DNA of 64,000 nt from positions 1 through 64,000 of the IMG/VR virus record IMGVR_UViG_3300042197_000642. One strand, 5' to 3'. Position numbers and translations under genes: made by a program. The notes under the pieces are model-generated. The model saw only the letters and a list, made by a program, of their open reading frames with translations, was not told the DNA's origin and made no database searches. The stretch is from a virus. Shown here one piece after another: positions 1 to 13,551 of this stretch. How positions within the stretch are numbered: position 1 is the first letter of the stretch; each line of letters opens with the position of its first letter.

Positions 1-2
1 CA

Positions 3-467
3 CAAGCCGTTCATCAAAGTGATGAGTGGCAAGCCAACCTATGTATGGGCATTACTCGTGCCTATATGGAAGGGATACATAACGATAGCAACCATGAACC
101 TAATGCTGACCAACTATCAGGACTAGGACTTGCTATCTACCTATCTTGGCTCAATAGTCAGATGTATGCGGTTATCAAGTTAATGGCTCTATTAGGGGGC
201 ACTACTGAGGACACCGATACATTGAAAGGTTTGGGTTTTATCCACAGACTATTTGCCCCACCCCCAGTAGCAATAGCCTTAAAGAACGCATATCTTAACC
301 TTAATACATTGGAACTTATGGAGAAAGATGTTGATGTATTCGAGGTATTAAAGACACAGATTAACTCTATGAGTATGAACGACTTCCGTAAGGTAATGGA
401 AAAAGAAGGCGTTTCGTTTGATGTTAATGATGTTCCCAACTTCCTAAAGGAGAAGGGTAATGGATAG
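3..467 (+). CDS. Hypothetical protein, probably 5'-truncated by the window edge
   Basis: Frame of ORF 45..467 is open back to position 3; no recognisable motif. Confidence 0.6.
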   Translation, partial: QAVHQSDEWQANLCMGITRAYMEGIHNDSNHEPNADQLSGLGLAIYLSWLNSQMYAVIKLMALLGGTTEDTDTLKGLGFIHRLFAPPPVAIALKNAYLNLNTLELMEKDVDVFEVLKTQINSMSMNDFRKVMEKEGVSFDVNDVPNFLKEKGNG

Positions 468-561
468 AGATATAGAGCAGGAAATACTAGAAATCGAGTT
501 AAACGCATGGCGCGAACTCGGTGAGCAACGCAGAAAAGAAAGAGAGGCAAATGGTGAGTAA
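460..561 (+). CDS. 33-aa hypothetical protein (MDRDIEQEILEIELNAWRELGEQRRKEREANGE), not in ORF track
   Basis: Manual translation; AAGGAGAAGGG RBS; overlaps both neighbouring genes. Confidence 0.5.
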   Translation: MDRDIEQEILEIELNAWRELGEQRRKEREANGE

Positions 562-778
562 GCCAAGCCTATCAATCTCAATAGACGAATACACAAGGGG
601 AGAGCCAATCCTATTTCGTATAGACGGCAATCCAGTTGTTAATCTTACTATTGACGAAGCCACAGAGTTGCGCGACCAGTTAGAGTTCGGTATTGTCCTC
701 TACAAGCAAGAACGCCGTAAAGTATTGACCCAAAAGATAGAGGAATACACGAAGGAGTTATCAGAAACCAATGTCTAG
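551..778 (+). CDS. Hypothetical protein (likely start MVSKPS at 551)
   Basis: ORF 521..778; GAGAGG precedes ATG 551. Confidence 0.6.
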   Translation: MVSKPSLSISIDEYTRGEPILFRIDGNPVVNLTIDEATELRDQLEFGIVLYKQERRKVLTQKIEEYTKELSETNV

Positions 779-992
779 AGCCGAGCCCTCAATGGGGAAG
801 GTTGTTCCTTCCCACGCATGTCCCCGTTGTGGGCAAAGCAAAGATGTTATATATACGAGGCCTAGCATTAAGTATGGAAATGTATATTTCTGCCAGCCTT
901 GTGATGAAGGTGGCCCCACACCTGAGAGGCCTAACAGAAGCGACGGACACTTCTATGTAGGCAAAAGAGGGCTAACAACAGAGCGTTGGTAA
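771..992 (+). CDS. Small Zn-ribbon protein
   Basis: CPRC...CQPC pairs; overlaps upstream stop. Confidence 0.55.
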   Translation: MSRAEPSMGKVVPSHACPRCGQSKDVIYTRPSIKYGNVYFCQPCDEGGPTPERPNRSDGHFYVGKRGLTTERW

Positions 993-1025
993 TTAACGCT
1001 ATACAGAGAGATAGGATTACCACAC

Positions 1026-1145
1026 ATGAAATGCCAAGCAAAATGCGAGTTTGATTTAGATATGGACGGCCAAGTAACCTGTGTAATGTGTGGCGCAAGA
1101 ACCCCAGAGTGGGGCCAACAACCTCCTGTTGAGTTCGAGGAGTAA
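1026..1145 (+). CDS. 39-aa Cys-containing microprotein (MKCQAKCEFDLDMDGQVTCVMCGART...)
   Basis: Manual translation; CxxxC and CxxC. Confidence 0.45.
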   Translation: MKCQAKCEFDLDMDGQVTCVMCGARTPEWGQQPPVEFEE

Positions 1146-1259
1146 TTTGTTTGTGTTGACCCACCCACCCACTACCTGAAAAAGACAAGCAGAAGCAGCT
1201 AAAGCTGCTACCCAACACAAACTCGCGCTCAGTTTTGTCCTATCCTTGACAAAACGCCA

Positions 1260-1292
1260 AAATGAGAGTAATGGGGCGCAAATGAGAGTAAT
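1260..1292. repeat. 13-bp direct repeat AAATGAGAGTAAT x2 (20-bp period) just downstream of TTGACA
   Basis: Copies at 1260-1272 and 1280-1292; TTGACA at 1246-1251. Confidence 0.8.
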
Positions 1293-1484
1293 AAGACCCA
1301 CAGATAGAAGCTAATCGATCCGACAAGGGTCAAAGCGCATGCCAATTCGGCTACTGCCCACAAGCAGAGAGAGGTCATAGGCGCACAGCCACTCCTACAC
1401 GCTCTCCCTGCCCTACCTAGCAGATATAAGCCCCTTCCCCCTCTATATATAGGCAGAGAGAGATGAGTGCTTGCGCCCCGACCC

Positions 1485-1531
1485 GACACGCTTGCGCTCT
1501 CGTTGCTTCCAATGGTGTTATTCGATAGTAT
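1485..1531 (+). promoter_or_regulatory. Sigma-70-type promoter with upstream GACACGCTT motif
   Basis: TTGCTT(1503)-17 nt-TAGTAT(1526); GACACGCTT at 1485; same architecture at 6517-6562. Confidence 0.6.
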
Positions 1532-1570
1532 CGCCCTTACCCAAATGGGTATATACGAAAGGGAAAACAA

Positions 1571-2938
1571 ATGCTCGCAATATGTATAGAAACACAGGAA
1601 GCAGAGGCACGACTTCAAACTATCGTGTTCCCTACTTCCAATGATGTGTCCATACTCCACCGCACTTTTACAGGTGAACGAGGTCGAGGACAGACATGGC
1701 GTAAGACAGAGGTAGAAAACCTACCTACCGCACCAATAACTAAATCACCATGCGCCGTAGTAATTACAGGCAGGGATATGGAATTGGTCGCTCAAAACCA
1801 ATTCACTAATCTAGGTGTTCGTGCTACTTCCGCACTAGATACCGCCCAAGAAATATCCGTAGAAAAATCTCACAAAGAGGTGGTCGAGGAGTTTATTGGT
1901 CGTCTATTCGAGGGCGATATGAGCCTCAATGATTACCTAGTAGATAAGCGATACTCAAATGGGGTCGCTATCAAACCTATACAAAAATCCGCAGTAATGG
2001 AAATACCAACTAATCAAAGCGCACCAACTATCAGGGCTACCAATTATGAAGTTAGCAATATAAATGAAATGGTAGTAGTTCCTGATATTAAATGGAGTAA
2101 GGAATATGTAAATCGTAAAGTCGGCGGAATTAAGGAGTTCGATATTTACGATAAAGCCATGATGAACCATGAGAATATCCTTATCGAAGGTCATGCTGGA
2201 AGTGGTAAGACCATGAGTGTTATCGCCTACGCAAGTGCGAGAGGGTATCGCTACTACAATGTATCTAGCCATATTGGATTAGAAGCAAGCCAATTATTCG
2301 GCAAGTGGATACCAACCGCAGACGGACACTTTAAGTGGCAAGACGGCGCAGTTAGCGAGATAGTTCGTAATGGTGGTGTATTACTACTTAACGAAATCAA
2401 CTTCATACCTGAACGAGTATCAACAGTATTATTCTCACTATTAGACGATAGACGAGAAATACAACTAATGGATAATGGTGGCGAAGTAATTAAGGCTCAC
2501 ACCGACCTACTAATCGTGGGCGATATGAACCCTAACTATCGTGGCACTCGACCAATGAACCAAGCATGGAAAGACCGCTTCCACCATGTATTAGAGTTCC
2601 CTTATGAAGTATCTATCGAACGCAAGTTATTAAAATCAAATGCGCTAATTACAATGGCTAATCAACTACGAACTCAATTTGAGAACGAGGAAATTACAAC
2701 TCCAATATCAACTCGTTCGTTAGTATCGCTAGTAAGAAACGCAAAGCAATTCGGTATCGAATACGCACTTTACAGTTATACAAATAAGTTCGATATACAT
2801 GAACGCAACGCAGTTAAGTTAGTATGCGATACACACAAAGTAAATATCTGCCAAGACTTAGATATTGAAATAGCGATACCTCAAACTCAATTAGAGGAAA
2901 CAACTATTGAAGTAATTACAAGTGAGGCGATTAACTAA
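1571..2938 (+). CDS. MoxR-family (CobS/CbbQ/NorQ-like) AAA+ ATPase
   Basis: Walker A GHAGSGKT; Walker B variant LLLNEIN; MNPNYRGT..NQAWKDRF; ISTRSL. Confidence 0.88.
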   Translation: MLAICIETQEAEARLQTIVFPTSNDVSILHRTFTGERGRGQTWRKTEVENLPTAPITKSPCAVVITGRDMELVAQNQFTNLGVRATSALDTAQEISVEKSHKEVVEEFIGRLFEGDMSLNDYLVDKRYSNGVAIKPIQKSAVMEIPTNQSAPTIRATNYEVSNINEMVVVPDIKWSKEYVNRKVGGIKEFDIYDKAMMNHENILIEGHAGSGKTMSVIAYASARGYRYYNVSSHIGLEASQLFGKWIPTADGHFKWQDGAVSEIVRNGGVLLLNEINFIPERVSTVLFSLLDDRREIQLMDNGGEVIKAHTDLLIVGDMNPNYRGTRPMNQAWKDRFHHVLEFPYEVSIERKLLKSNALITMANQLRTQFENEEITTPISTRSLVSLVRNAKQFGIEYALYSYTNKFDIHERNAVKLVCDTHKVNICQDLDIEIAIPQTQLEETTIEVITSEAIN

Positions 2939-4857
2939 TGAAGTTCAAAAACTCTGAATTATTAGATATGGAGTTCCGTCAATTATGGAACGAAACTCCT
3001 GAGGAGTTATCAGAACGCCATGATGAGAAGCAACAACATATTGCTGAACTCAACAGTATTGCCAATGTATATACAAAGGCAGACCGCATATTGGTAGGTA
3101 ATGAAATTACTTGCCATGTAGTCGAGAACGAGGAATACAAAGAAGCCATGCCAACAGGGGCGTGGTCTGACGGCAAAAATATCTACTTCAATTCTGACTT
3201 AATAGATGAAGTAGATGAAGCCTCACTCGTATCGCTTCATGGACTTAATTACCATGAACTTGCTCATGTATTATATTCACCAAGAAGTTCAAGTGAAATA
3301 ACTCAATGGGCTAAGATTAACAATTACGGAAAGTCTTTCAATGTATTAGAGGAAGCGAGAATTGAAACTTTACTTACAACAAAGTATCCAAGCACTCGTA
3401 TATTCCTAGAAGCAACAACACTTCAATATCTATTAGACCGACCAAAAGATGAGTGGGCAGACGCTTACCCAATTATGGTGGGTAGAAAATATGTAGATAT
3501 AGAGTGGCGTGAAATCACAGGAAATCTATTCTCTCGTAAATATGGATTACCACTAGCAATAGAAATTACCGATATAGTAAATAAATATCGAACACTCGTA
3601 TTCCCCGACGATTACGCTATTGCTAAAACTCTAATCGAAAGATTAGGGCAGATAATCAACGGCAACCTTCAACTACCTGAAACCAAAACATGCGTATCAC
3701 GACCAAGTATGGACAAGGGCAGACCTGAGGGAAAGCGTGAGCAACAACGCTTACAAGATATGGCAAAAGGTAAATCTGAAACTGACCCACAACTAAATGG
3801 GGAAGGCGCAGATAAAGGTAAAGGCGAGGAATTAAATCCTAATACCGAATTAGATAGCAAAGATATTAACGCTGGACTATCTGATAACGAAAAGGAATTG
3901 CTGAAGCAGAAGTTAGAAAAGATAATTAACTCCAAAGATGTAAAGAACGAGTTAAAGAATACGCAAAAAGCAATAAGCAAAGCCTCACACAGAAACTCAT
4001 TACCAAAGGCAGGACTAACTCATAACGCAACTCCAACTACTGAAATGCGTGGCGTAGCAAAACGCTTCGCTGACGAATTGGAAAGATTACGAGTAGAAGC
4101 CGACCCTTCATGGGAACAAGAAACTCCAAGTGGTAGGCTTAACATAGGTCGAGCCATGAAGCGAGATATAAATAACCTTAATCGAGTATTCGATAGGTGG
4201 GAGTTCAATTCAGATAATACGGATATAGAAGCAGTAATCCTATTAGATAGAAGTGGCTCAATGTGGAATATGAAGTCGGTGTGTGAAAGCGCATGGGCTA
4301 TCAAGCGAGCAGTAGAAAGAATAAATGGGAAAGTAGCAATTTATTCCTTCAACCACAATAGCCGAACTCTCTATCGTGCTGACGAAAAAGCAAATCCAAA
4401 TGTAGTTAGAGCGATACAAAGTAATGGTGGCACAGACCCATATCAAGGGCTACTGGAAGCCGAACGAGTATTCAACGCAACTACCGCCCCGACCAAGTTA
4501 TTGTTTATCCTAACAGACGGCGAGTGGGCTAATGATGAAGCGTGTGATACTACTATCAAACGCCTAAACCAAAATGATGTCGAAAGTATTGTGGTGTATC
4601 TAGGAACGCTAGATGTAGCCATGACCTACGAACAATGGAGTGAACACCAATTAAGGTGGGTAGATAAAAACAATGCTGAGGCAGTAGCGGAAGCCACCAA
4701 AGATATAAATGAAACTAAATATCAAGAATACAAATCGTATTATGATATTAACAGATACAAACATAACGCTAAATACTTCCGAGCGATTACAAAACCCACA
4801 GACTTAGTTCAAGTAGCGAGGGATATAACTAAGTCAAAACTAAAGGTCGCTCGGTAA
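2938..4857 (+). CDS. CobT-like VWA protein with N-terminal HExxH domain (MoxR partner)
   Basis: HELAHV, NVLEEARIE, SGRLN, MIDAS DRSGS..GGT..ILTDG; TAATG coupling to ATPase. Confidence 0.85.
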   Translation: MKFKNSELLDMEFRQLWNETPEELSERHDEKQQHIAELNSIANVYTKADRILVGNEITCHVVENEEYKEAMPTGAWSDGKNIYFNSDLIDEVDEASLVSLHGLNYHELAHVLYSPRSSSEITQWAKINNYGKSFNVLEEARIETLLTTKYPSTRIFLEATTLQYLLDRPKDEWADAYPIMVGRKYVDIEWREITGNLFSRKYGLPLAIEITDIVNKYRTLVFPDDYAIAKTLIERLGQIINGNLQLPETKTCVSRPSMDKGRPEGKREQQRLQDMAKGKSETDPQLNGEGADKGKGEELNPNTELDSKDINAGLSDNEKELLKQKLEKIINSKDVKNELKNTQKAISKASHRNSLPKAGLTHNATPTTEMRGVAKRFADELERLRVEADPSWEQETPSGRLNIGRAMKRDINNLNRVFDRWEFNSDNTDIEAVILLDRSGSMWNMKSVCESAWAIKRAVERINGKVAIYSFNHNSRTLYRADEKANPNVVRAIQSNGGTDPYQGLLEAERVFNATTAPTKLLFILTDGEWANDEACDTTIKRLNQNDVESIVVYLGTLDVAMTYEQWSEHQLRWVDKNNAEAVAEATKDINETKYQEYKSYYDINRYKHNAKYFRAITKPTDLVQVARDITKSKLKVAR

Positions 4858-4862
4858 TGAAA

Positions 4863-4952
4863 GTGAGGCGTGGCTTATTCCCTTCGTATAGTTATCTGCC
4901 ACGCCTCACCCTATTTGATAAGCCTAATACTTCCACTCTATTAGGCTTATCA
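4863..4952 (+). repeat. Two tandem perfect hairpins (12-bp and 14-bp stems)
   Basis: GTGAGGCGTGGC 4863-74 / GCCACGCCTCAC 4898-4909; TGATAAGCCTAATA 4916-29 / TATTAGGCTTATCA 4939-52. Confidence 0.85.
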
Positions 4953-5050
4953 CTTCCCTATCTCTTAGCCTTATCACACAGAATAGGCTTGCCAACACAA
5001 ACAAACCAAACGCTCTACGGAAAGGGCATAGTAAAGGTTGAGGGTGGAAA

Positions 5051-5290
5051 GTGATAGAAACAATTACGACAATAGCAGGTTCAATTACCATAACCTTAAT
5101 TGGAGTGGGGATTTACAACAGATTTAAGCAAAGCGCAATAATTAAAAACAACGAACTTATGAAAGGCGTTAAAGGCTGGCAGAACTTTTATGAGAAAGCA
5201 GAAGCAATAAGAAGGAAAACTGAGTTAGAGAGGAGAGAAAAAGAGAGAGGCAGGTCGGAGAGGTTAGATGAACTTACGAGAGAGTTGTGA
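5051..5290 (+). CDS. Small membrane-anchored protein
   Basis: N-terminal hydrophobic helix, charged helical tail; GTG start. Confidence 0.55.
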   Translation: MIETITTIAGSITITLIGVGIYNRFKQSAIIKNNELMKGVKGWQNFYEKAEAIRRKTELERREKERGRSERLDELTREL

Positions 5291-5302
5291 GAGTATTCGC
5301 CC

Positions 5303-5491
5303 ATGCCTTTATTTCATATTAGCCGAGAGGAAAGACATATTTACTATTTAAGTATTGAAGCAGATAGTAAAGAGGAAGCACTACTTGAAGCGGATACAGA
5401 TTTTATGTATTATGAGCCAAACGAGATTATGCCCGACAACACCAATGTTAGGTATATAGCACAGGAAGTAGTCAAACTAGATGAATTGTAA
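5303..5491 (+). CDS. Small acidic hypothetical protein
   Basis: IEADSKEEAL motif common in small phage proteins. Confidence 0.6.
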   Translation: MPLFHISREERHIYYLSIEADSKEEALLEADTDFMYYEPNEIMPDNTNVRYIAQEVVKLDEL

Positions 5492-5720
5492 AAACCACGA
5501 TATTAACGAGTGCGAGGCTTGCTATTCCCCTGAAACAGAAGCCAATGAAAATGCGACTTATCTAATTACAGAGCAGAAGCAGACCGCTAGTAATCGTGAG
5601 TATTATGGCAAGTTAATGCGTAAGCACCTTGCCGACCTACAAGAAAAGTATTCTGACCATGCTGAGATAAAGCATGAGTTAGATGTAATAGCAGACTATC
5701 TATTCTATTTATACGAATAG
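5481..5720 (+). CDS. Hypothetical protein
   Basis: ORF in tightly packed run; N-terminal CxxH..CxxC. Confidence 0.55.
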   Translation: MNCKNHDINECEACYSPETEANENATYLITEQKQTASNREYYGKLMRKHLADLQEKYSDHAEIKHELDVIADYLFYLYE

Positions 5721-5744
5721 ACTACACAGAGAGAAGGAAAACAA

Positions 5745-6335
5745 ATGGGGCTAGACATGTATCTATATGCTGAAAAGTATATATCATCATCAGACGCTTT
5801 CAAAAAAGACGACCCAAAGAAATACCAAGCAATACTGGAAACCGCAGAAATGGATAATTTGCCAAAGAGCGATTATGGAAACATAATGGTTAAATCACAA
5901 GTTGGATACTGGCGCAAGGCTAATGCTATTCATGGTTGGTTCGTTCGTGAGTGTGCCAATGGTGTAGATGAGTGCCAAGAAATATATGTAAGTGCTGAGA
6001 AGTTAATTGAACTTAGAGATGAGTGCGTTAAAGCGTTAGCCAATAGGCACAATGCTACCAAGCCAATAGAAGCCGATTATGTTCATAAGTTAGACGGAGA
6101 AAACTCTGAGGACATTATGAAACTTATTGTTGATAGTATGAAACGGCAAAGTGAGAAATCAAATACAAAGTTAGAGGACACACTAGACCCACTAGCACCG
6201 ACCACAGGGTTCTTTTTCGGTAGTGCTGAGAAAGATGAATACTATTACAAAGACCTTGAATATACAGTTGAACTAGTTAATTCCTTATTAACGAATAAAG
6301 ACGACTATTCTTTTATTTACAGAGCAAGTTGGTAA
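5745..6335 (+). CDS. Conserved phage hypothetical protein
   Basis: MGLDMYL..YWRKANAIHGWF..DEC..GFFFG..YRASW signature; GAAGGAAAA RBS. Confidence 0.8.
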   Translation: MGLDMYLYAEKYISSSDAFKKDDPKKYQAILETAEMDNLPKSDYGNIMVKSQVGYWRKANAIHGWFVRECANGVDECQEIYVSAEKLIELRDECVKALANRHNATKPIEADYVHKLDGENSEDIMKLIVDSMKRQSEKSNTKLEDTLDPLAPTTGFFFGSAEKDEYYYKDLEYTVELVNSLLTNKDDYSFIYRASW

Positions 6336-6342
6336 GCCTCAA

Positions 6343-6498
6343 ATGAAACGCTACGGGGTTCAAACCAAAATCGTTATGGAAAGTGAGTGGGTTGCTGAAA
6401 CCCCTGAGGAAGCGGTAGCCTTAGCAGACGAGTGGCTTAGAGATACCTATGGAGATATAAACTACAAAGCCAATTACTTCGCAAGGGAGTTATCTTAA
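6343..6498 (+). CDS. 51-aa hypothetical protein (MKRYGVQTKIVMESEWVAETPEEAVALA...)
   Basis: Manual translation; AETPEEA motif resembles ORF 5303. Confidence 0.55.
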   Translation: MKRYGVQTKIVMESEWVAETPEEAVALADEWLRDTYGDINYKANYFARELS

Positions 6499-6516
6499 TT
6501 CAAACCCGATATTGAC

Positions 6517-6562
6517 GACACGCTTCCCTACTATTGGGCTTCCAAGCAACAAGTAGTAGGAT
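6517..6562 (+). promoter_or_regulatory. Promoter with upstream GACACGCTT motif
   Basis: GACACGCTT 6517; TTGGGC(6534)-17 nt-TAGGAT(6557); shares GCTTCCAA with the 1485 promoter. Confidence 0.55.
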
Positions 6563-6597
6563 AAGCACTAATCCGCAAGTCTAGACAAGGAGAGCAA

Positions 6598-6906
6598 ATG
6601 GCAAGAAAAGTAAATAAGCGTTTCAAGGCAGACCTGACCTTGAACAAAGAGCGCGGTGGCGCATGGCTCGCCACGATTTGTTTGTGTAGGGTCGCAGTTG
6701 ATGAAATGGGTTCTCCCAATGAAATAACTGAGATAGCCTCTGTAAGCGCATGGAAAAATGCGTCTGCTGGAAAGAAATACATTAAGGCAAAAGTTCAAGA
6801 ATTAACACCACGCAAGAGCGTGAAACTTGTTGCTGGCAACGAAACTAACGAGAAAGGTAAGCCTATCGCTTTTAGCGGTAGCCTAGACTTCAGAGTAGAG
6901 GCGTAA
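6598..6906 (+). CDS. Basic hypothetical protein
   Basis: AAGGAG RBS; own promoter. Confidence 0.7.
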   Translation: MARKVNKRFKADLTLNKERGGAWLATICLCRVAVDEMGSPNEITEIASVSAWKNASAGKKYIKAKVQELTPRKSVKLVAGNETNEKGKPIAFSGSLDFRVEA

Positions 6907-7004
6907 TGGAGAGAGATAGTTTTGACCCAAAGATAGTCCCTTCAATTCCTGATGAGGAGATTTGGGAAGAAGAAGATGATGAGGAACTATGGGAAGATGA
7001 TTAG
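6906..7004 (+). CDS. 32-aa highly acidic microprotein (MERDSFDPKIVPSIPDEEIWEEEDDEELWEDD)
   Basis: Manual translation; TAATG coupling to upstream gene. Confidence 0.55.
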   Translation: MERDSFDPKIVPSIPDEEIWEEEDDEELWEDD

Positions 7005-7012
7005 GAGAGTTA

Positions 7013-7111
7013 ATGATTAACGCCATGTGGCAATTACAAATACTAGTTCAAGAATTAGAGTTTTGGAAGTTAGTATTAGAAATCTTTACACAGTTAAATA
7101 TAACGCTATAA
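7013..7111 (+). CDS. 32-aa amphipathic microprotein
   Basis: Manual translation; AGGAGAG RBS. Confidence 0.4.
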   Translation: MINAMWQLQILVQELEFWKLVLEIFTQLNITL

Positions 7112-7135
7112 GACTTCCATAAGGAAGATAAGGGG

Positions 7136-7171
7136 AAGCCCCTGCCACTCTCTCTGTTGGCAGGGGCTTTT
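7136..7171. terminator. Terminator hairpin between converging gene blocks
   Basis: AAGCCCCTGCCA / TGGCAGGGGCTT 12-bp stem, short T-run on + side. Confidence 0.8.
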
Positions 7172-7733
7172 ACTTTCCTGGAAGCCAAAGCGTATCGCCT
7201 TGTTCTCTATTCTCATATCGGGCTAACACAAATAACAAATCGGATAGTCGGTTTAAGTATTTTGCTGTTAAAGGATTTACACCTTCACCAAAGCCGTTAA
7301 TTGCTTGCCAAGCCCTTCGCTCTGCTCTGCGAACAATGGTTCTGGCTACATGGAGATGGGAAGATGCTGCCGAGCCTGAAGGGAGTATGAAAGAGCGTAA
7401 AGATTCTAGATTTGAATTGTATATATCGATTTGATTTTCAAGATAATCTATTTGTTCTTGTGTAATTCTAAGGGGAACTATCTCTGGAGCTTCAACAACC
7501 GGAGTGGAGAGGTCAGCCCCAATATCGAACATATTGTTCTGTATTGTGAGTAGTAATTTCCTAATATCCGAATTGGTTATATGGAGAAGTGCTACCCCAA
7601 TGTAAGAGTTTGCTTCATCCACTGTGGCAAACGCTTCAAGACGAGTATCTGTTTTAGAAGTTCGACTCATGTCTCCAAGAGAGGTTGTTCCATCATCGCC
7701 TGTCTTTGTGTATATACGAGTTAGATGAACCAT
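7170..7733 (-). CDS. pduO: PduO-type ATP:cob(I)alamin adenosyltransferase
   Basis: IYTKTGDDGTT, VDEANS, FILPSG, HVARTIVRRAER, YLNRLSDLLF; start MVHLTR at 7733. Confidence 0.93.
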   Translation of the reverse strand: MVHLTRIYTKTGDDGTTSLGDMSRTSKTDTRLEAFATVDEANSYIGVALLHITNSDIRKLLLTIQNNMFDIGADLSTPVVEAPEIVPLRITQEQIDYLENQIDIYNSNLESLRSFILPSGSAASSHLHVARTIVRRAERRAWQAINGFGEGVNPLTAKYLNRLSDLLFVLARYENREQGDTLWLPGK

Positions 7734-7867
7734 TAGTGCCCAGTCAAGGAACGCCAAATGTCTATTGTTTTAGCGTTGGCTATATATAAACATAATAGGG
7801 TTAAAGAAAGTTGAACTATTACTTTGTAAGAAGACTTTTGTTCTACATGTTTATCTAATAGTTTCAT
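7733..7867 (-). CDS. 44-aa putative single-pass membrane protein (MKLLDKHVEQKSSYKVIVQLSLTLLCLYIANAKTIDIWRSLTGH)
   Basis: Manual translation; ATGA and TAATG overlaps with both neighbours. Confidence 0.6.
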   Translation of the reverse strand: MKLLDKHVEQKSSYKVIVQLSLTLLCLYIANAKTIDIWRSLTGH

Positions 7868-8319
7868 GGGAACTTTAACTCTCCTTTAGGACCAGTCCAA
7901 ACTAACCCTATTGAATCTCCAGGATTTAAGTATTGTTGGTCTATAGCAAGTTGTCCCCAACCCCATTCTTTTCTTGGAAATGGTATAACTTGTTTTTCTT
8001 TAATAATGATTGCCCAGTATGCTTCGGCTGGCGGCATGACTTCACAGGATTCAACAGTTTCATTTGGTAATCCATTTACTCGACAGATAACGCCATTACC
8101 ATACTTTTTTGTGCCTTCAATTTGAAGGTTGGCTTCTTTTAATACCTCTAAAGCATTTGTTTTAGTAGATGTATCAACACAAGTTGTTAACTTTGTATTG
8201 TTATCTAGTTGACCATAATCAACATACAAATTTACACATGAATCATTTGAGGAGTTTGTCGAAGACCAGACTCCGATCACAAGACCCGTGGCTATAACGA
8301 ATAGTAGTCCTTTTTTCAT
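7864..8319 (-). CDS. Exported or membrane-anchored protein resembling DUF4430/SCO2322-like putative cobalamin-binding domains
   Basis: Signal/TM N-terminus; VDYG..C..GT..YG..ICRVNGLP..C...PPA.AYW pattern; lies between nrdJ and pduO. Confidence 0.55.
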   Translation of the reverse strand: MKKGLLFVIATGLVIGVWSSTNSSNDSCVNLYVDYGQLDNNTKLTTCVDTSTKTNALEVLKEANLQIEGTKKYGNGVICRVNGLPNETVESCEVMPPAEAYWAIIIKEKQVIPFPRKEWGWGQLAIDQQYLNPGDSIGLVWTGPKGELKFP

Positions 8320-8321
8320 AA

Positions 8322-10367
8322 TTAAACCTTACTCTCGGATTTGATTAACTTTATCTCACATGCGTCTGTTGTGCAATAGGCTTCCCCGATAGCATCAGCC
8401 GCCAGACCTGCGTAAACTCCTGAGAAGTCAATAGGGAATAATTTAAATCGGTAATCCTCATACTCTTCGGCAGTTATTTGGGTATATGGTAATTGAGGAT
8501 AAACAAAGTTGCCCATAGGTAAGAAGGAAACAGTTTTGAGCTGTCCGTCATACATATGGAGAGCAGTTCCTACGGCATCCTTTTCTTTTTCAATATCAAA
8601 GGAAATGGTAACGGAGACAGAGTTATCACTCCAATGGCGTTGTGCCGTAGAAGCAAGAGACATCTTCTCGTATATAGAAACATCTTTCTCAGAACGTTTT
8701 GCTTTTGATTTAATAGGGAAAAACACTACGGAAGTAGTTTCAGGGCTTTCAACCGCAGGCTCTACTCGATAGTTAGCCATTTTGAATAAAGGAAGCATAG
8801 GGTCACTGTTGCCAAATCGAATAGCCCGCAGGAAGTATTCTCCACCTGGAGTCCAGTGAACGCCAGGAGACTCTCCAGCAAGAATAGATACAGTTCCACT
8901 AGGTTTAATTGTGGTTGTCTTAATTGATTCCCGAATACCTAGCCACTCTGAGTATGATTTGTCGTAGTTTTGAACTACAGCGTAACCAGCATCCATCCAC
9001 TCACGCAATACAGGGAGACCTACTCGGTCAGCAAAATTAGCTACACCAGACACAGAAGTTCCAATACGGCGGTTTCTTTGCATGATGGCATTGGTTTCTT
9101 CCCAGTGCGTAGGAAGTAATGTAACAGTCTTGGCATATAGGTAAGCAAACTTAAGAGTTCTCTTAAAGTCATCTAGGTTGTCATGTCGTCCTATATAGGT
9201 TTCGACTAGGGTGCAACACTCAAAGGATTCTAGAGTTTGCTCAGCGCATGGGTTATACCCAGAGGCTCGCCAGTCTTTATTGTTTGGTGGGTCAATCAAA
9301 CGACCATACTTACGGCTAACATCCATCCATACAACACCAGGCTCACCATTTAAAGCAATACCTTCTACGATATGGGAGAGGTCGTCACCTACTTCAACCG
9401 ATACAGAGTTGTTAGACATCCAAGCCCAACCAGGAGCGTCAGGGTCATATGAGTTACGCTCAGGAAAGACCGCAGAGTTCTTTAGGTTTAAAAAGTCTTT
9501 ATCATCTAAGCGTCCGATCAAAAGCTCAGCGGATCTACGTACGTTACCGGAGACAACGCATACGCCTATTAAATTACCAATATCGGCAATATCAATTCGG
9601 GTTAAAGCATTTCCTTCTCTTCCATTGAATATCTTACGGATATAGTTGTGCAGCTTAATCAAAGGCTCTGGCCCTGCAGCTATACCGCCAAAGGTTTTAA
9701 TGACCTCTCCTGCTGGTCTAATTTGTGAATAATCGAATTGAATTGCTTTTTGATCTGGTTTTAAATAAGAGTTAATTAGGGCCCCGACAGATTCGACCCA
9801 TCCCTCCCTAGTATCTGGGATTACAACTGGTGCGTCTTCATTGGCTTCTGGTTTATAAATTAAAAACTCTTTATCTGCACCTTTGTCGTCAAACCCTACG
9901 CCTACCCCAAGCATTGAGGCTTCCATCAGGAAAGTAAATGGTTTAGAAGGATTTAATTTAGTCATAGACTCTGTAGAAACAAACGCACAGTTTTGAAGAG
10001 CCGCCGAGTTACGTTGTTCATTTACTATGGGCGTTCCCATTACCCACAGACCTCTGCCTGGTGGTGTCCACTTTAAATTGAATAGACGGTCAAATGCCTC
10101 TTTAGCCGAAGCCTGGGCTTTGGCATCATTCCAAGGAAGTCTATTGGTTTTGGCATGTTCTTTTTGTAGGGAGTACATGCCGTTGATAACTCGTTCACAT
10201 ACATCAACCCAAGTTTCCTTTGTGCCATCTGACTTTAACCTTGAGTATGTTCGTAAAAAGGTAATTTCTCCTACGGAGTTTCCACCTGCGTCGGAGTACC
10301 CCCATGGAACTTTCTTTTCTTTGTAACCTGTTACGAAGTCATCTGCAAGCTTAAATGAAAATGGCAT
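8322..10367 (-). CDS. nrdJ: Class II (adenosylcobalamin-dependent) ribonucleotide reductase, RTPR-type
   Basis: PPGRGLW, ALQNCAF, GNVRRSA, NPCAEQ, TTIKPSGTVS, C-terminal CTTDAC; no small subunit nearby. Confidence 0.93.
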   Translation of the reverse strand: MPFSFKLADDFVTGYKEKKVPWGYSDAGGNSVGEITFLRTYSRLKSDGTKETWVDVCERVINGMYSLQKEHAKTNRLPWNDAKAQASAKEAFDRLFNLKWTPPGRGLWVMGTPIVNEQRNSAALQNCAFVSTESMTKLNPSKPFTFLMEASMLGVGVGFDDKGADKEFLIYKPEANEDAPVVIPDTREGWVESVGALINSYLKPDQKAIQFDYSQIRPAGEVIKTFGGIAAGPEPLIKLHNYIRKIFNGREGNALTRIDIADIGNLIGVCVVSGNVRRSAELLIGRLDDKDFLNLKNSAVFPERNSYDPDAPGWAWMSNNSVSVEVGDDLSHIVEGIALNGEPGVVWMDVSRKYGRLIDPPNNKDWRASGYNPCAEQTLESFECCTLVETYIGRHDNLDDFKRTLKFAYLYAKTVTLLPTHWEETNAIMQRNRRIGTSVSGVANFADRVGLPVLREWMDAGYAVVQNYDKSYSEWLGIRESIKTTTIKPSGTVSILAGESPGVHWTPGGEYFLRAIRFGNSDPMLPLFKMANYRVEPAVESPETTSVVFFPIKSKAKRSEKDVSIYEKMSLASTAQRHWSDNSVSVTISFDIEKEKDAVGTALHMYDGQLKTVSFLPMGNFVYPQLPYTQITAEEYEDYRFKLFPIDFSGVYAGLAADAIGEAYCTTDACEIKLIKSESKV

Positions 10368-10420
10368 TACTTTCCCCTGTTCTGGTATTAGATTGTTTAA
10401 GAAGACCTAATAGTACCTGT

Positions 10421-10491
10421 AGCGCACCCTACACCATCTGCCTCAACTTAAACCAAATTGAGGAGATACAAGTTCACGTAGATTGCACCCT
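10421..10491 (-). other. Long imperfect intergenic stem-loop
   Basis: Inner CCTCAATTT/AAGTTGAGG stem plus outer stem with G-U pairs on the minus strand. Confidence 0.6.
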
Positions 10492-10509
10492 TTATATCAG
10501 ATATAAAAA

Positions 10510-11982
10510 CTATTGATTTTCTTCTATTGCACCCTTAATTATCTGGGTAGTTTCTTCTTCGTTTAGGCCGTTGTTAGGTAGTTCTCGAAGCACATTTGCC
10601 TTGTCTCCAAATATCTGAGAAAGCACTCCAGCGCTACCTTGGCGCTCTACGGTCATACGAATAAACTCTCTAGAATCATCTAATTCTTTAACTGTTTTAA
10701 TTAACTTAAATAAACGGTCTATTTCTTGAGATACGTTAGGATCGGCGTATCCACCGTTCATTTCTTCACTAAAACGCATAAAAGCAACGCGTTGTCCCTG
10801 CATTTCAATGATTGCATTGATAAGGGATTTAAGTTGTTCTTTGGTCTTTACCTCTACTGGTAACTTAAAAGCACAAGCATTATTAGGTTTAAAAGCAGGG
10901 CAATTTGCTGCAACAAAGCAAGTGTTACACTGCCTTAAAGTACCCGCTTGGGATTGAATAACTTGTACTTCTTTAATGACCCCATCAGCATCAACTTCTG
11001 TTTTTGTATCGTATCCAAACACCGGTAAATTGATAATTTCATCAGGATTTCTTGGTATAAGTTTCCGCTCTTGTACCCCCTTTGTATCAGCATTGTCGAG
11101 GGTAGTTTCCGCAGTTGTAGCAGGTACATTTTCACTGCTTATATCTGATATAAACTCTTCTTCATCATATGGTCCCACGGTGTTTATCCTATCTTCTAAT
11201 CGTTCGTATGACCATACTGCTAACTTACATACCTCTTTAGGGTCATCTTCAATAATCTTATCAAAGTCTATACCAGCCTTATCGTATATATGTCTATACC
11301 TAGAACGGGCTTGGTCTTTCATTCTCTTTGGGTATCTAACTATTCTAGAACCGTCCCAAATTATGGTTTCACCGTGCATCATTGGGGAAAGCCAGGACAT
11401 AGTGCTTGCGGTCTCACACTGTATAGACCTTAGATTGTCAGGCTTAGCACACGCAATAGCGTGAAATCTAGTACCCCTACGTCGAACAAATGTACGAGTA
11501 GCTGCAGCTAGGAAGCTATAGGCTTCTATATCTTGACCTGATATTCCTACATCTAAATACGAATCTACTAATTTATTAAGGCCAGCTTGACCTGTTGGAG
11601 AGTGCCATACAGGCAAAAACTTACCGGGTGGAACCTCGGCCCAGCAAGTGCGTCTTTGGGTTTCTATAAACTCTTGGGTTAATAATGGGTGATCCAATTC
11701 GGTAAATAGGGTTATACGGTCCATATTATTGGCTATAAACTCTTCATACTCAGCTGCAAAGCTCTCAAGCTCAGCTTGATCCAGGTTTGCGTCCTTTGGT
11801 ATACCGCCATGAACATAAATACTATTATCCGATTTAAAATGGTCCGATAATAGGTAGTTCTTTCGCTTAGGAAGACCGCGTTTTGTTAATCTCCAAAAGC
11901 TTACCCCTATGCTAGTAGCTGTAGTAGTTTCCAATAAGGTCCGATTGCTCGGAACCTCTGCGCCCAAATATATGATTTTCAT
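10510..11982 (-). CDS. Putative TGT/DpdA-like TIM-barrel protein with C-terminal Cys4 and helical domain
   Basis: RFHAIA..ETASTMSW..HGET resembles the H.FG..S.DS.SW segment of TGT-like proteins; CNTC..C..C. Confidence 0.4.
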   Translation of the reverse strand: MKIIYLGAEVPSNRTLLETTTATSIGVSFWRLTKRGLPKRKNYLLSDHFKSDNSIYVHGGIPKDANLDQAELESFAAEYEEFIANNMDRITLFTELDHPLLTQEFIETQRRTCWAEVPPGKFLPVWHSPTGQAGLNKLVDSYLDVGISGQDIEAYSFLAAATRTFVRRRGTRFHAIACAKPDNLRSIQCETASTMSWLSPMMHGETIIWDGSRIVRYPKRMKDQARSRYRHIYDKAGIDFDKIIEDDPKEVCKLAVWSYERLEDRINTVGPYDEEEFISDISSENVPATTAETTLDNADTKGVQERKLIPRNPDEIINLPVFGYDTKTEVDADGVIKEVQVIQSQAGTLRQCNTCFVAANCPAFKPNNACAFKLPVEVKTKEQLKSLINAIIEMQGQRVAFMRFSEEMNGGYADPNVSQEIDRLFKLIKTVKELDDSREFIRMTVERQGSAGVLSQIFGDKANVLRELPNNGLNEEETTQIIKGAIEENQ

Positions 11983-12107
11983 GTGTCTTGTTTAGGTAAC
12001 ATCTCCTGCCACCATTTAATCCAAGCATCGTATTGTTCAAATGGTTTTTGGCTCTTTAGTTCTTCTTCAGTGAACCCACCGTCTCTTGGTGTAATCTCGT
12101 GGTTCAT
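11979..12107 (-). CDS. 42-aa hypothetical protein
   Basis: Manual translation; ATGA overlaps at both ends. Confidence 0.55.
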   Translation of the reverse strand: MNHEITPRDGGFTEEELKSQKPFEQYDAWIKWWQEMLPKQDT

Positions 12108-12559
12108 ACTCTTGAATCTTCTATAAATAAACCAAGTTGGCGGTCGTATTCTTTTTCAATTTCTGCCCAAGGCTTTACACCTTCAGGTGCATCAGGTCTA
12201 AACTCTGGACGTAGGTACAATGGATGTAAAAATAAAAGTGTGTTGTATCCGGCTTCCAATAATTGTTTTGCTAATTCCATGTTAGATGTAACTACAAATT
12301 CTATTTTACCTTTTGAACGCAAAGATTGACATTGTGCAAACTCATCTTTACCATGTGTAATACTTGAGTTTTCTAATATGTCATCAAAGTCAATTTTGTG
12401 TGAACGTAACCAATGTTCTGTTTTATCACGTTGGTCTGGGCCAACTACTACAATTGAATTCTTTTCTTTTATAGATTTGTAAAGGACTACACCTTCAAGA
12501 ATTGGTTGTTTGTTCAGCTGATTCCTCAGCACTCCGTCCATAAAGACGATAACGCTCAT
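12104..12559 (-). CDS. HAD-fold protein lacking the first catalytic Asp
   Basis: VIVFMDGVL vs DxDGxL; TEHWL..FD pattern of PNK/acid-phosphatase-like HADs. Confidence 0.55.
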   Translation of the reverse strand: MSVIVFMDGVLRNQLNKQPILEGVVLYKSIKEKNSIVVVGPDQRDKTEHWLRSHKIDFDDILENSSITHGKDEFAQCQSLRSKGKIEFVVTSNMELAKQLLEAGYNTLLFLHPLYLRPEFRPDAPEGVKPWAEIEKEYDRQLGLFIEDSRV

Positions 12560-12618
12560 CTAATACCTCATGTCCTAATACCCACGCCCAACCGTTTTGG
12601 CAAGGCTTGCAAGTGCAT

Positions 12619-13551
12619 CTATCCATTTTGGGTTAATGCCCTACGGACGAGAAGACTAGCATCTGGAAGCTCCATTCCGTAAGTATGCGACTCAAATTCT
12701 TTTCGTGTCTGCGTTGATATTTCTTTCATTCGTTTTAATGCTGGTATAACTCCTGAGGCTTTGCCGGACTGCCACCTATAATTAGCATAATCTTCGTATC
12801 CTTGACCTTCTGGGGTAAAGGCAGAACTTCGTCCTTTATGTATAGAATCAAATAAGGCGGCACCTTGATCTACCGCTAACTTTAAAGCAGCTTCGGCATT
12901 TCTTCTAGCAGCATCATTTTTAGCTGCTTCTACTCCATAGTAAGCGTTGTTATATCTTTGAAGAATCTCTAATGCCATAGTTTTATCTTTTTCTAATTTA
13001 GGTTCCCAGTCCTTACGGAACGATGCACCCTCTTCTGCGGGCTCTACAGTCCAAGAATCTGAAGTTAAGGAGTAAGCGGCATAGGGTTTAATCTTTGTTA
13101 TATCTGACACGACATTGACATAAAAAGTAAGTTCAAACACATTAAGAAACTCTTCTGTATTTGGGTGTAAGTTTTCTCTAAACCCTTCATTTAAGGTTTG
13201 AGCAATTTCTCTGTCGCTTAAAGTTGCATACCTTTGGTTAGCTTGTCTAAATTTAATGTAATCAATTCCTATTAAACAGTCTAAATCTGCTGGCTCACGC
13301 TGAGCAGCCCATTGATAGCTGACTCCTGATCCAGCTAACCATACATGTGTATAATCTTCAGGGCTGTAAAATCTATCTTTTAAGTGCCCAAATAAGATAC
13401 TAAGAATTGCGTTACGAACGCTAGGAATTAACTTTCCATTTATAAATAGTCTTGGATCTAAACCACCGGCTAATTTACTAAAATATGAAGTATCTGAAGG
13501 TTCTAAGTTAATTGGTGTAGATTGTTGCACTAATGCGTCATAGTAATTCAT
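12619..13551 (-). CDS. Pol-beta superfamily nucleotidyltransferase
   Basis: LAGSGVSYQW..DLDCLI, ELTFYV, YSL...W. Confidence 0.7.
   Translation of the reverse strand: MNYYDALVQQSTPINLEPSDTSYFSKLAGGLDPRLFINGKLIPSVRNAILSILFGHLKDRFYSPEDYTHVWLAGSGVSYQWAAQREPADLDCLIGIDYIKFRQANQRYATLSDREIAQTLNEGFRENLHPNTEEFLNVFELTFYVNVVSDITKIKPYAAYSLTSDSWTVEPAEEGASFRKDWEPKLEKDKTMALEILQRYNNAYYGVEAAKNDAARRNAEAALKLAVDQGAALFDSIHKGRSSAFTPEGQGYEDYANYRWQSGKASGVIPALKRMKEISTQTRKEFESHTYGMELPDASLLVRRALTQNG

Follow-up and report, generated by a model that had tools for sequence, protein, structure and literature searches.

Why is one operon of an uncultured lake phage almost free of restriction-type sites, when such words occur at about chance density in the remaining ~84 kb of its genome? 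This question is raised by the 64,000-nucleotide stretch of IMG/VR virus record IMGVR_UViG_3300042197_000642 (positions 1 to 64,000, referred to as the window), which covers the initial 64 kb of one viral contig of 95,795 bp. The block concerned is one plus-strand operon, which starts with the genes for a MoxR-class AAA+ ATPase and a partner protein with a VWA domain and ends at a convergent junction with the minus-strand bulk of the genome. Continuing selection strips Type II and Type IIS words from this AAA+/VWA operon, whichever strand they are on and whether or not the DNA is coding. This selection is very probably directed against restriction sites in DNA that must function unprotected.

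The seven palindromes GATC, AGCT, TGCA, GTAC, ACGT, CCGG and GGCC are present in 1708 copies in the 95,795-bp genome (17.8 per kb), and the interval from window 1318 to 7487 has none of them. GATC at 1317 and AGCT at 7488 are the nearest sites on either side of the block, so that the gap without the seven words is 6171 bp long, as compared with 776 bp for the next-largest gap of the genome. Positions 1-858 likewise do not contain the seven words, and the 460-bp island at 859-1320 contains nine sites. A first-pass annotation of the window had reported that these words are missing from about 1321-7480 and from 1-850, that many copies would be expected by chance, and that the words are abundant from about 7490. 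The first two of these statements are borne out, the number expected in the block being ~113-131 according to order-0, order-1 and maximal-order Markov models or the bulk rate. The third is wrong, because 7488-9500 contains only nine seven-word sites when ~35-40 are expected at the genome rate, and normal density is reached from ~9.5 kb.

The annotation had also proposed a codon-shuffled null. When the nine open reading frames (ORFs) of the block are shuffled synonymously, 89.3±7.8 seven-word sites (minimum 70), 28.7 interrupted palindromes (GANTC, GTNAC, GGNCC, GCNGC, CCNGG) and 26.5 Type IIS-type words are expected, and not a single one is observed in any of these three sets. The tolerated words CATG, CTAG, TCGA and GCGC are observed 69 times in the same ORFs, as compared with 65.6 after the shuffle. 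Control bulk genes show a modest deficit of the seven 4-mers (86 vs 110.5±7.9) and agree with expectation for the other word sets. A 45-word set yields one site in the operon (1321-6906) when 270 are expected from bulk rates, a number that is somewhat overstated because ~83 of it comes from the 20 words of set C, which were picked for their absence from the block; sets A and B alone yield one site when 187 are expected. The non-coding region at 6907-7169 contains no site when 12.7 are expected. The block has a GC content of 40.8%, as compared with 39.6% for the bulk. The maximal-order observed/expected ratio (O/E) of twelve G/C-containing palindromes is 0.55-1.08 in the bulk, indicating at most mild avoidance.

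Seven of the 136 strand-merged 4-mers are absent from the block, and all seven are palindromes. CGCG is present once (at 6652) when 10.9 copies are expected, and the lowest O/E of any non-palindromic 4-mer is 0.34. The observed and expected numbers of interrupted palindromes are 1 and 19.7 for GANTC, 0 and 17.5 for GTNAC, 0 and 10.5 for GGNCC, 1 and 14.6 for GCNGC, and 1 and 10.5 for CCNGG, and the three sites observed all fall in 7170-7487. The asymmetric words that are lost, among them Type IIS-like 5-mers such as GGATG, GAGTC and GTCTC, are absent in both orientations, from coding and non-coding DNA alike. Altogether, 30 of 63 restriction-type patterns with at least four copies expected are absent or nearly so. 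No di- or trinucleotide is depleted in the block, and the possibility that the purge removes the target of a DNA modification was rejected because no di- or trinucleotide and no non-palindromic 4-mer is missing. In composition, CG is 1.4 times and CGA/TCG 2.5 times as frequent in the block as in the bulk, and CATG and TCGA are enriched in the block although they are low in the bulk. These excesses are probably a side effect of the codon choices forced by the purge. CTNNAG is found four times in the block when 41 copies are expected, and the loss of CTGCAG alone does not account for all of this deficit.

The ATPase has more than 500 metagenomic homologues, many of them on 88-99-kb contigs. A profile search of viral contigs with an alignment of AAA homologues yielded 70 loci, in which the AAA identity is 46-56%; homologues with an 85-98% identical AAA fall outside the compared loci. 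The VWA protein alone, used as a query against viral contigs, detected no relatives. The VWA gene adjoins the AAA gene in 70 loci, and the operon adjoins the same genes for a class II ribonucleotide reductase (nrdJ) and a TGT-like protein in at least 48 independent assemblies. In 48 loci with enough flank, the operon was compared with the DNA 7.5-11 kb downstream, and it is purged relative to this flank in all 48. In 42 pooled loci, the observed and expected numbers are 10 and 372 for GGCC, 33 and 562 for AGCT, 6 and 98 for CCGG, 3 and 384 for CCWGG, 8 and 335 for GCATC, 19 and 435 for GGATG, and 9 and 396 for CCATC; GCNGC, GGNCC and CAGTG are lost similarly. AGCT, GGCC, CCWGG, GCNGC, GGNCC, GGATG and GCATC are purged in all loci; TGCA, GTAC, ACGT, CGCG, GCGC, TCGA, CATG, GANTC, GTNAC and CGNCG only in particular lineages; and CTAG, AGNCT and TGNCA in no locus. 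According to the ATPase tree, the word sets differ even among very close relatives, and broad sets arose more than once. Such differences between lineages are expected if the host enzymes differ. The conservation of the purge in 48 related loci with lineage-specific words excludes a chimera, composition and recent transfer, and shows ongoing selection that depends on the host and centres on this operon.

The edge of the purge at the junction is sharp and keeps its position. In 15 of 18 strongly purged loci examined, the final stop codon of the plus strand lies no more than ~130 bp from the start of dense sites. An alignment of 48 non-redundant loci on the junction gives the universal words an O/E of 0.04-0.08 over AAA-VWA, and 0.5 kb past the junction this ratio has reached 0.8-1.3. 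On the upstream side it climbs slowly to ~1 at -13.5 kb, the purge fading over about 7 kb. The features of the region are as follows, with window coordinates unless stated otherwise.

Genome 95,446 over the contig join to window 858, plus strand: purged segment A, distal portion of the early unit before the operon, 7 sites when 51.5 are expected at bulk rates
859-1145, plus strand: site-bearing island with two small zinc-ribbon ORFs (771-992 and 1026-1145) and five GGCC, without homologue in relatives
1146-1320, no strand assigned: regulatory spacer with normal site density
1321-7487, no strand assigned: purged block with none of the seven 4-bp palindromes, one CGCG, and essentially no interrupted palindromes or Type IIS-like 5-mers
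1571-2938, plus strand: MoxR-class AAA+ ATPase (AAA_5), first gene of the operon, Pfam AAA_5 1.5e-20
2938-4857, plus strand: VWA-domain partner of 639 amino acids (aa), weakly CobT-like, Pfam VWA 2.5e-7
5051-6498, plus strand: small ORFs of 79, 62, 79, 196 and 51 aa, four of the five acidic, isoelectric point (pI) 4.3-4.8
6598-6906, plus strand: basic 102-aa protein, conserved in 30 relatives
6906-7166, plus strand: operon end with 32-aa ORFs at 6906-7004 and 7013-7111, and terminator hairpins on both strands at ~7130-7166
7170-8319, minus strand: convergent module with a PduO-type adenosyltransferase (7170-7757) and a 151-aa protein (7864-8319)
8322-11982, minus strand: first core genes of the unpurged bulk, nrdJ (8322-10367) and the TGT-like protein (10510-11982)

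The phage has a myovirus gene set (tail sheath, baseplate, portal, major head protein and large terminase). Almost all genes are encoded by the minus strand, in the region between 91.1 kb and 7.17 kb, and a single plus-strand early arm extends from ~91.5 kb over the join to ~7.1 kb. The 64-kb window contains no tRNA genes, and window 1-9000 has no megablast match among cultured phages. The ends of the contig share a 142-bp overlap, and an intact 200-aa ORF spans the join. These features indicate that the assembly is circular and that window position 1 is arbitrary. The 142-bp repeat was considered as a true terminal repeat, and this was dropped because 126 exact bases are followed by two mismatches and the ORF over the join is intact, as for an assembly overlap.

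How could such a purge be confined to one operon? The operon would have to survive uncut and be expressed from naked incoming DNA at a time when the phage is not yet protected, and the rest of the genome would have to remain unexposed during that time. Polar or staged entry, of the kind represented by the first-step transfer of T5, would provide such an order, provided that the convergent junction, near window 7.1-7.5 kb, is the leading end: the operon would enter first, its products or simply elapsed time would set up protection, and the bulk would follow. The AAA+/VWA pair and the small acidic proteins may be the effectors, although this is speculation. It is plausible that the block is terminal or injected first, and we give about an even chance to the reading that it is a restriction-proofed early operon, most likely by means of T5-like polar or staged entry. 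A more specific proposal, that in the freshwater myoviruses of this clade staged delivery evolved independently of T5 and that the AAA+/VWA machine and its small acidic partners import the rest of the genome or disable host restriction, is advanced only tentatively.

The sharp edge at the junction, the gradual decay upstream and the lack of a purge, in most relatives, in a conserved early gene 4 kb upstream (TIGR03299) suggest that DNA is less exposed the farther it lies from the junction. Streptomyces phages such as Alone3, whose genome carries an exact terminal repeat of 197 bp, have a large terminase with 55% identity to the present one. This terminase clade makes fixed genome ends, which are needed for staged entry, plausible. 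The sharp junction edge, the upstream decay and the terminase clade fit polar or staged entry from the junction. Contig ends were also considered as physical termini. In 22 of the 70 relatives the contig ends 100-1200 bp upstream of AAA, and these ends are scattered; one 99%-complete record joins a stop codon to a terminator, and a second hot spot of contig ends lies inside the gene for a TIGR03299 protein. This candidate was dropped, because such ends are accounted for by assembly breaks at boundaries between conserved and variable DNA.

In T5-like phages, restriction acts only through sites in the first-entering DNA, and sites elsewhere are harmless (PMC10644984). The first-pass annotation assumed that the first-entering DNA of T5/T7-type phages is depleted of sites. 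This holds insofar as the first-step DNA of T5 sets its restriction sensitivity (PMC10644984), and fails on depletion itself, because the first-step-transfer region of T5 (1-9600) contains 406 4-bp palindromes when 400 are expected. The signature of the present block, with none of the seven palindromes when about 120 copies are expected, is therefore much stronger than the T5 paradigm. The two systems are alike in that a sub-genomic segment of ~6-8% decides the restriction sensitivity of T5/BF23 (Tequintavirus) and encodes early genes (PMC10644984), in that transcription of the essential genes A1 and A2 of T5 runs towards the leading end, which would also be the direction of the present operon, and in that repeat- and hairpin-rich regulatory spacers flank the first-step segment (10.1101/866236). 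They differ in that site depletion in T5 concerns only particular enzymes, whereas the present operon is depleted relative to the rest of its genome; in that the present genome is that of a myovirus with MoxR AAA+/VWA core content and without homologues of A1, A2 or dmp; and in that the first-step DNA of T5 sits in a long terminal repeat at a fixed end, whereas the present block is known from a circular assembly.

In Autographiviridae, restriction likewise acts only through sites in the first-entering DNA, which is where anti-defence genes sit (PMC12455610). Their leading region, represented by that of T7 with Ocr and that of Murciavirus facing the Mme2I Type I system, resembles the present block in that restriction selects the first-entering DNA only (PMC12455610). 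However, it is transcribed inward from the leading end, so that the polymerase pulls the DNA in, whereas the operon points to the proposed end; Ocr is not found here, and ~30 Type II/IIS-type words are purged, as compared with one Type I motif. An inward orientation would need an end upstream of the arm, and the unpurged TIGR03299 gene argues against it. Genome-wide palindrome avoidance in phages (PMC6286503) involves the same kinds of words and the same inferred selective agent, but the present purge is limited to about 6-13 kb with a sharp edge at the convergent junction, and the bulk is unselected. In conjugative plasmids, the leading regions are depleted of restriction-modification targets and carry many anti-defence genes (as cited in PMC12455610; PMC10359461). 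They are similar as first-entering, first-expressed DNA that is purged, and the early arm encodes a TIGR03299 'phage/plasmid-like protein'; they differ in that the present case is a phage with double-stranded DNA entry and no transfer origin. The principle is already known, and the present case is an extreme variant of it, at the scale of a single operon and with about 30 words lost. It is further distinguished by clade-wide conservation with turnover of the word sets, and by a MoxR AAA+/VWA core in place of known anti-restriction genes.

The at most mild avoidance in the bulk, together with the lack of a match in the genome to the three DNA methyltransferase families searched (N6/N4, C5 and Dam), indicates that something generic must protect the bulk. 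ArdA has no match in the genome, Pfam ocr has none at an E value of 1, and a tblastn search of the genome with T5 dmp, A1, A2, ORF002 and ORF003 gave nothing better than E 0.27. Genes for the TGT-like protein, a HAD-like protein and a nucleotidyltransferase are located beside the junction (10510-13551) and represent core genes of the clade (61, 57 and 46 loci respectively). The TGT-like protein matches PHROG 887 (2e-56). Its N-terminal domain models well, and Foldseek relates the model weakly to tRNA-guanine transglycosylases (E about 1e-4, template modelling (TM) score 0.36-0.5). Pfam TGT does not match this protein even at E 1, and the ESM Atlas gives unnamed viral clusters only. The neighbouring genes scanned show no family match for queuosine-precursor synthesis, the genome not having been searched with QueC/D/E models. 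DNA modification by the TGT-like cluster is possible.

Several results weigh against entry of the operon in advance of the bulk. The assembly is circular, and the contigs of all relatives cross the junction without a break. The T5 first-step region, with its normal number of palindromes, offers no precedent for the depletion. The variable final 1.5 kb, which adjoins the proposed leading end, has an O/E of 0.1-0.3 and so is less purged than AAA-VWA; we assume that this reflects a turnover of small genes that vary among relatives. The spacer at the junction is in some loci no longer than 54-90 bp. Most relatives (loci L002-L068) lack GATC and CCGG in the flank as well as in the block, which indicates genome-wide avoidance, so that the protection of the bulk is not absolute and does not confer immunity to all restriction; in the bulk of the present genome these words are at or mildly below expectation (GATC, 171 vs 176-212; CCGG, 102 vs 94-107). 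Cultured distant relatives carry the AAA-VWA pair mid-genome and unpurged, and in one of them, Gordonia phage Chidiebere, no purge is detected around it. The spacers and two neighbouring early units of the same arm keep normal site density, and no known anti-restriction gene (Ocr, ArdA, T5 A1/A2/dmp) is found in the genome.

The main rival to staged entry is that the genome enters in a single step and that the virion brings in a shield for the bulk, either a base modification (made by the TGT-like/HAD-like/nucleotidyltransferase cluster) or a co-injected coating protein; we consider this unlikely, though worth retaining. The operon would then be site-free because it is exempt from the shield, for instance so that the host RNA polymerase can read it, or as a copy of a terminal repeat that is made at packaging. 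Such a shield would agree with the TGT-like gene and its two neighbours being core in the clade and lying beside the junction, with the bulk having all words at chance frequency without a methyltransferase, and with the purge tracking the boundaries of transcription units. However, no mechanism is known to exempt one operon from modification, no missing non-palindromic 4-mer, di- or trinucleotide can serve as its target, the TGT assignment is negative in Pfam and weak in structure, queuosine-precursor genes are not seen among the neighbouring genes scanned, and an upstream early gene with the same promoter architecture is unpurged. Alternatively, the operon may be expressed sacrificially, outliving the restriction of its own genome and disarming the cell for later sibling phages, in a manner that would resemble the cooperation among anti-CRISPR phages. 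The purge is indeed deepest over one promoter-to-terminator unit, and the neighbouring spacers and units keep sites. This explanation is nevertheless improbable, because individual cells of planktonic lake hosts should seldom be infected repeatedly, the lack of avoidance by the bulk in successful infections is left unexplained, and no anti-defence function is found.

Two further explanations are both very improbable. One is that the purge reflects an artefact or history: a chimeric assembly or a codon or composition bias, both of which the first-pass annotation had mentioned, or recent transfer from a donor that avoids these sites genome-wide. The block does have its own coding strand and a CG-rich word usage (the excess of CGA/TCG given above). 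However, the same operon lies beside the same nrdJ/TGT-like genes in independent assemblies, the purge survives ~50% protein divergence with lineage-specific word sets, the codon shuffle predicts 89 sites, and the GC contents agree. This explanation is effectively refuted by the codon shuffle and the related loci. The other is that selection acts at the RNA level, on motifs at which early mRNAs are cleaved, or that methylated sites decay by mutation. The match of the purged domain to transcription units agrees with it, and so do the universal words, many of which are typical targets of 5-methylcytosine methylases. On the other hand, the lost words are palindromes, the loss of asymmetric words affects both of their orientations, the purge extends to non-coding spacers at either end of the unit, typical adenine-methylase words (GATC and GANTC) are lost together with GTAC and TGCA, and mutational decay would hit the whole genome.

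The purge provides a clean signature, readable from sequence, of where host restriction bites on a phage genome. It predicts the first-exposed DNA in unculturable phages and reads out the restriction repertoire imposed by their hosts. If staged delivery is true, the purge would also be a marker of leading DNA in uncultured phages for which genome sequence alone is sufficient. The MoxR AAA+/VWA pair and a few small proteins are singled out as candidates for generic protection or DNA entry, and the question is raised of what shields 84 kb of site-rich DNA in a genome with no match to the three DNA methyltransferase families searched.

Several units follow one another in the early arm, and upstream of each of them lie a terminator, an inverted pair GTTTGTGTTG/CAACACAAAC and a promoter, with the pair in between. 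The numbers of observed and expected sites are 1 and 270 (bulk rates) for the AAA operon, 7 and 51.5 for the first 1.07 kb of the preceding unit, 20 and 53.6 for the first unit, 42 and 50 for the TIGR03299 unit, and 46 and 69 for the next unit; the spacers of the arm have near normal site density. Segment A contains ORFs for the acidic 200-aa protein (genome 95,518 to window 467) and an 85-aa protein (521-778). In the spacer at 1146-1320, the inverted pair (1152-1222) is followed by TTGACA at 1246 and by two direct copies of a 13-bp repeat, at 1260 and 1280, and the pair is also present at genome 93,916-94,004 and 95,322-95,396. It is kept in relatives (L031, L033, L046, L043 etc.), ~500 bp upstream of the AAA gene, where it forms a hairpin with a stem of ~28 bp. 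The loop of this hairpin holds almost the only restriction-type sites of the purged zone, such as GCCGGCCGG, and repeated operator-like elements, TATAACGATTTGATAACG and AGAGAGAG, follow the hairpin. The TIGR03299 gene (9.9e-60; genome 92,861-93,858, and 6861-7859 in locus L075) is located ~4.2 kb upstream of the AAA gene, is conserved in 31 loci, and is not purged in most relatives.

The ATPase gives sequence matches in PDB to midasin, NorQ and CbbQ, and fails the CobS equivalog model TIGR01650 (22.1 bits vs a cut-off of 558.55). The VWA protein gives a weak collinear match to CobT in PDB (E 0.004). The two proteins resemble the MoxR AAA+/VWA pairs CobS-CobT, NorQ-NorD and CbbQ-CbbO in the architecture of the pair, the AAA_5 domain and the C-terminal VWA domain, and differ from CobS-CobT in that the ATPase fails the CobS equivalog and no CobN partner is known. 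The small acidic ORFs (pI 4.3-4.8) lie at 5303-6498. Searches of the small ORFs of the block against PHROGs, Pfam and NCBIfam gave nothing usable, and the 196-aa protein retrieves only unnamed viral clusters from the ESM Atlas. The 102-aa protein yields a confident model (predicted local distance difference test score, pLDDT, 88.8), in which three long strands are followed by a helix and a strand. This model has no clear fold counterpart, the best hits being SSB-like at E 0.04 and a TM score of 0.3 in Foldseek, and a Z of 5.6 in VIA-align. The 32-aa ORF at 6906-7004, which contains 16 Asp/Glu residues, is TAATG-coupled to the preceding gene.

Beyond the junction, none of the 70 related loci has a counterpart of pduO, and only six have one of the 151-aa gene. 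In this module, 4-bp palindromes are low (3 vs 17 in 7488-8319) and 5-bp words are not, which suggests a different history for the inserted pduO module. The class II ribonucleotide reductase is 75-83% identical among relatives whose AAA ATPase is only ~50% identical, reflecting either unusually strong conservation or recent exchange.

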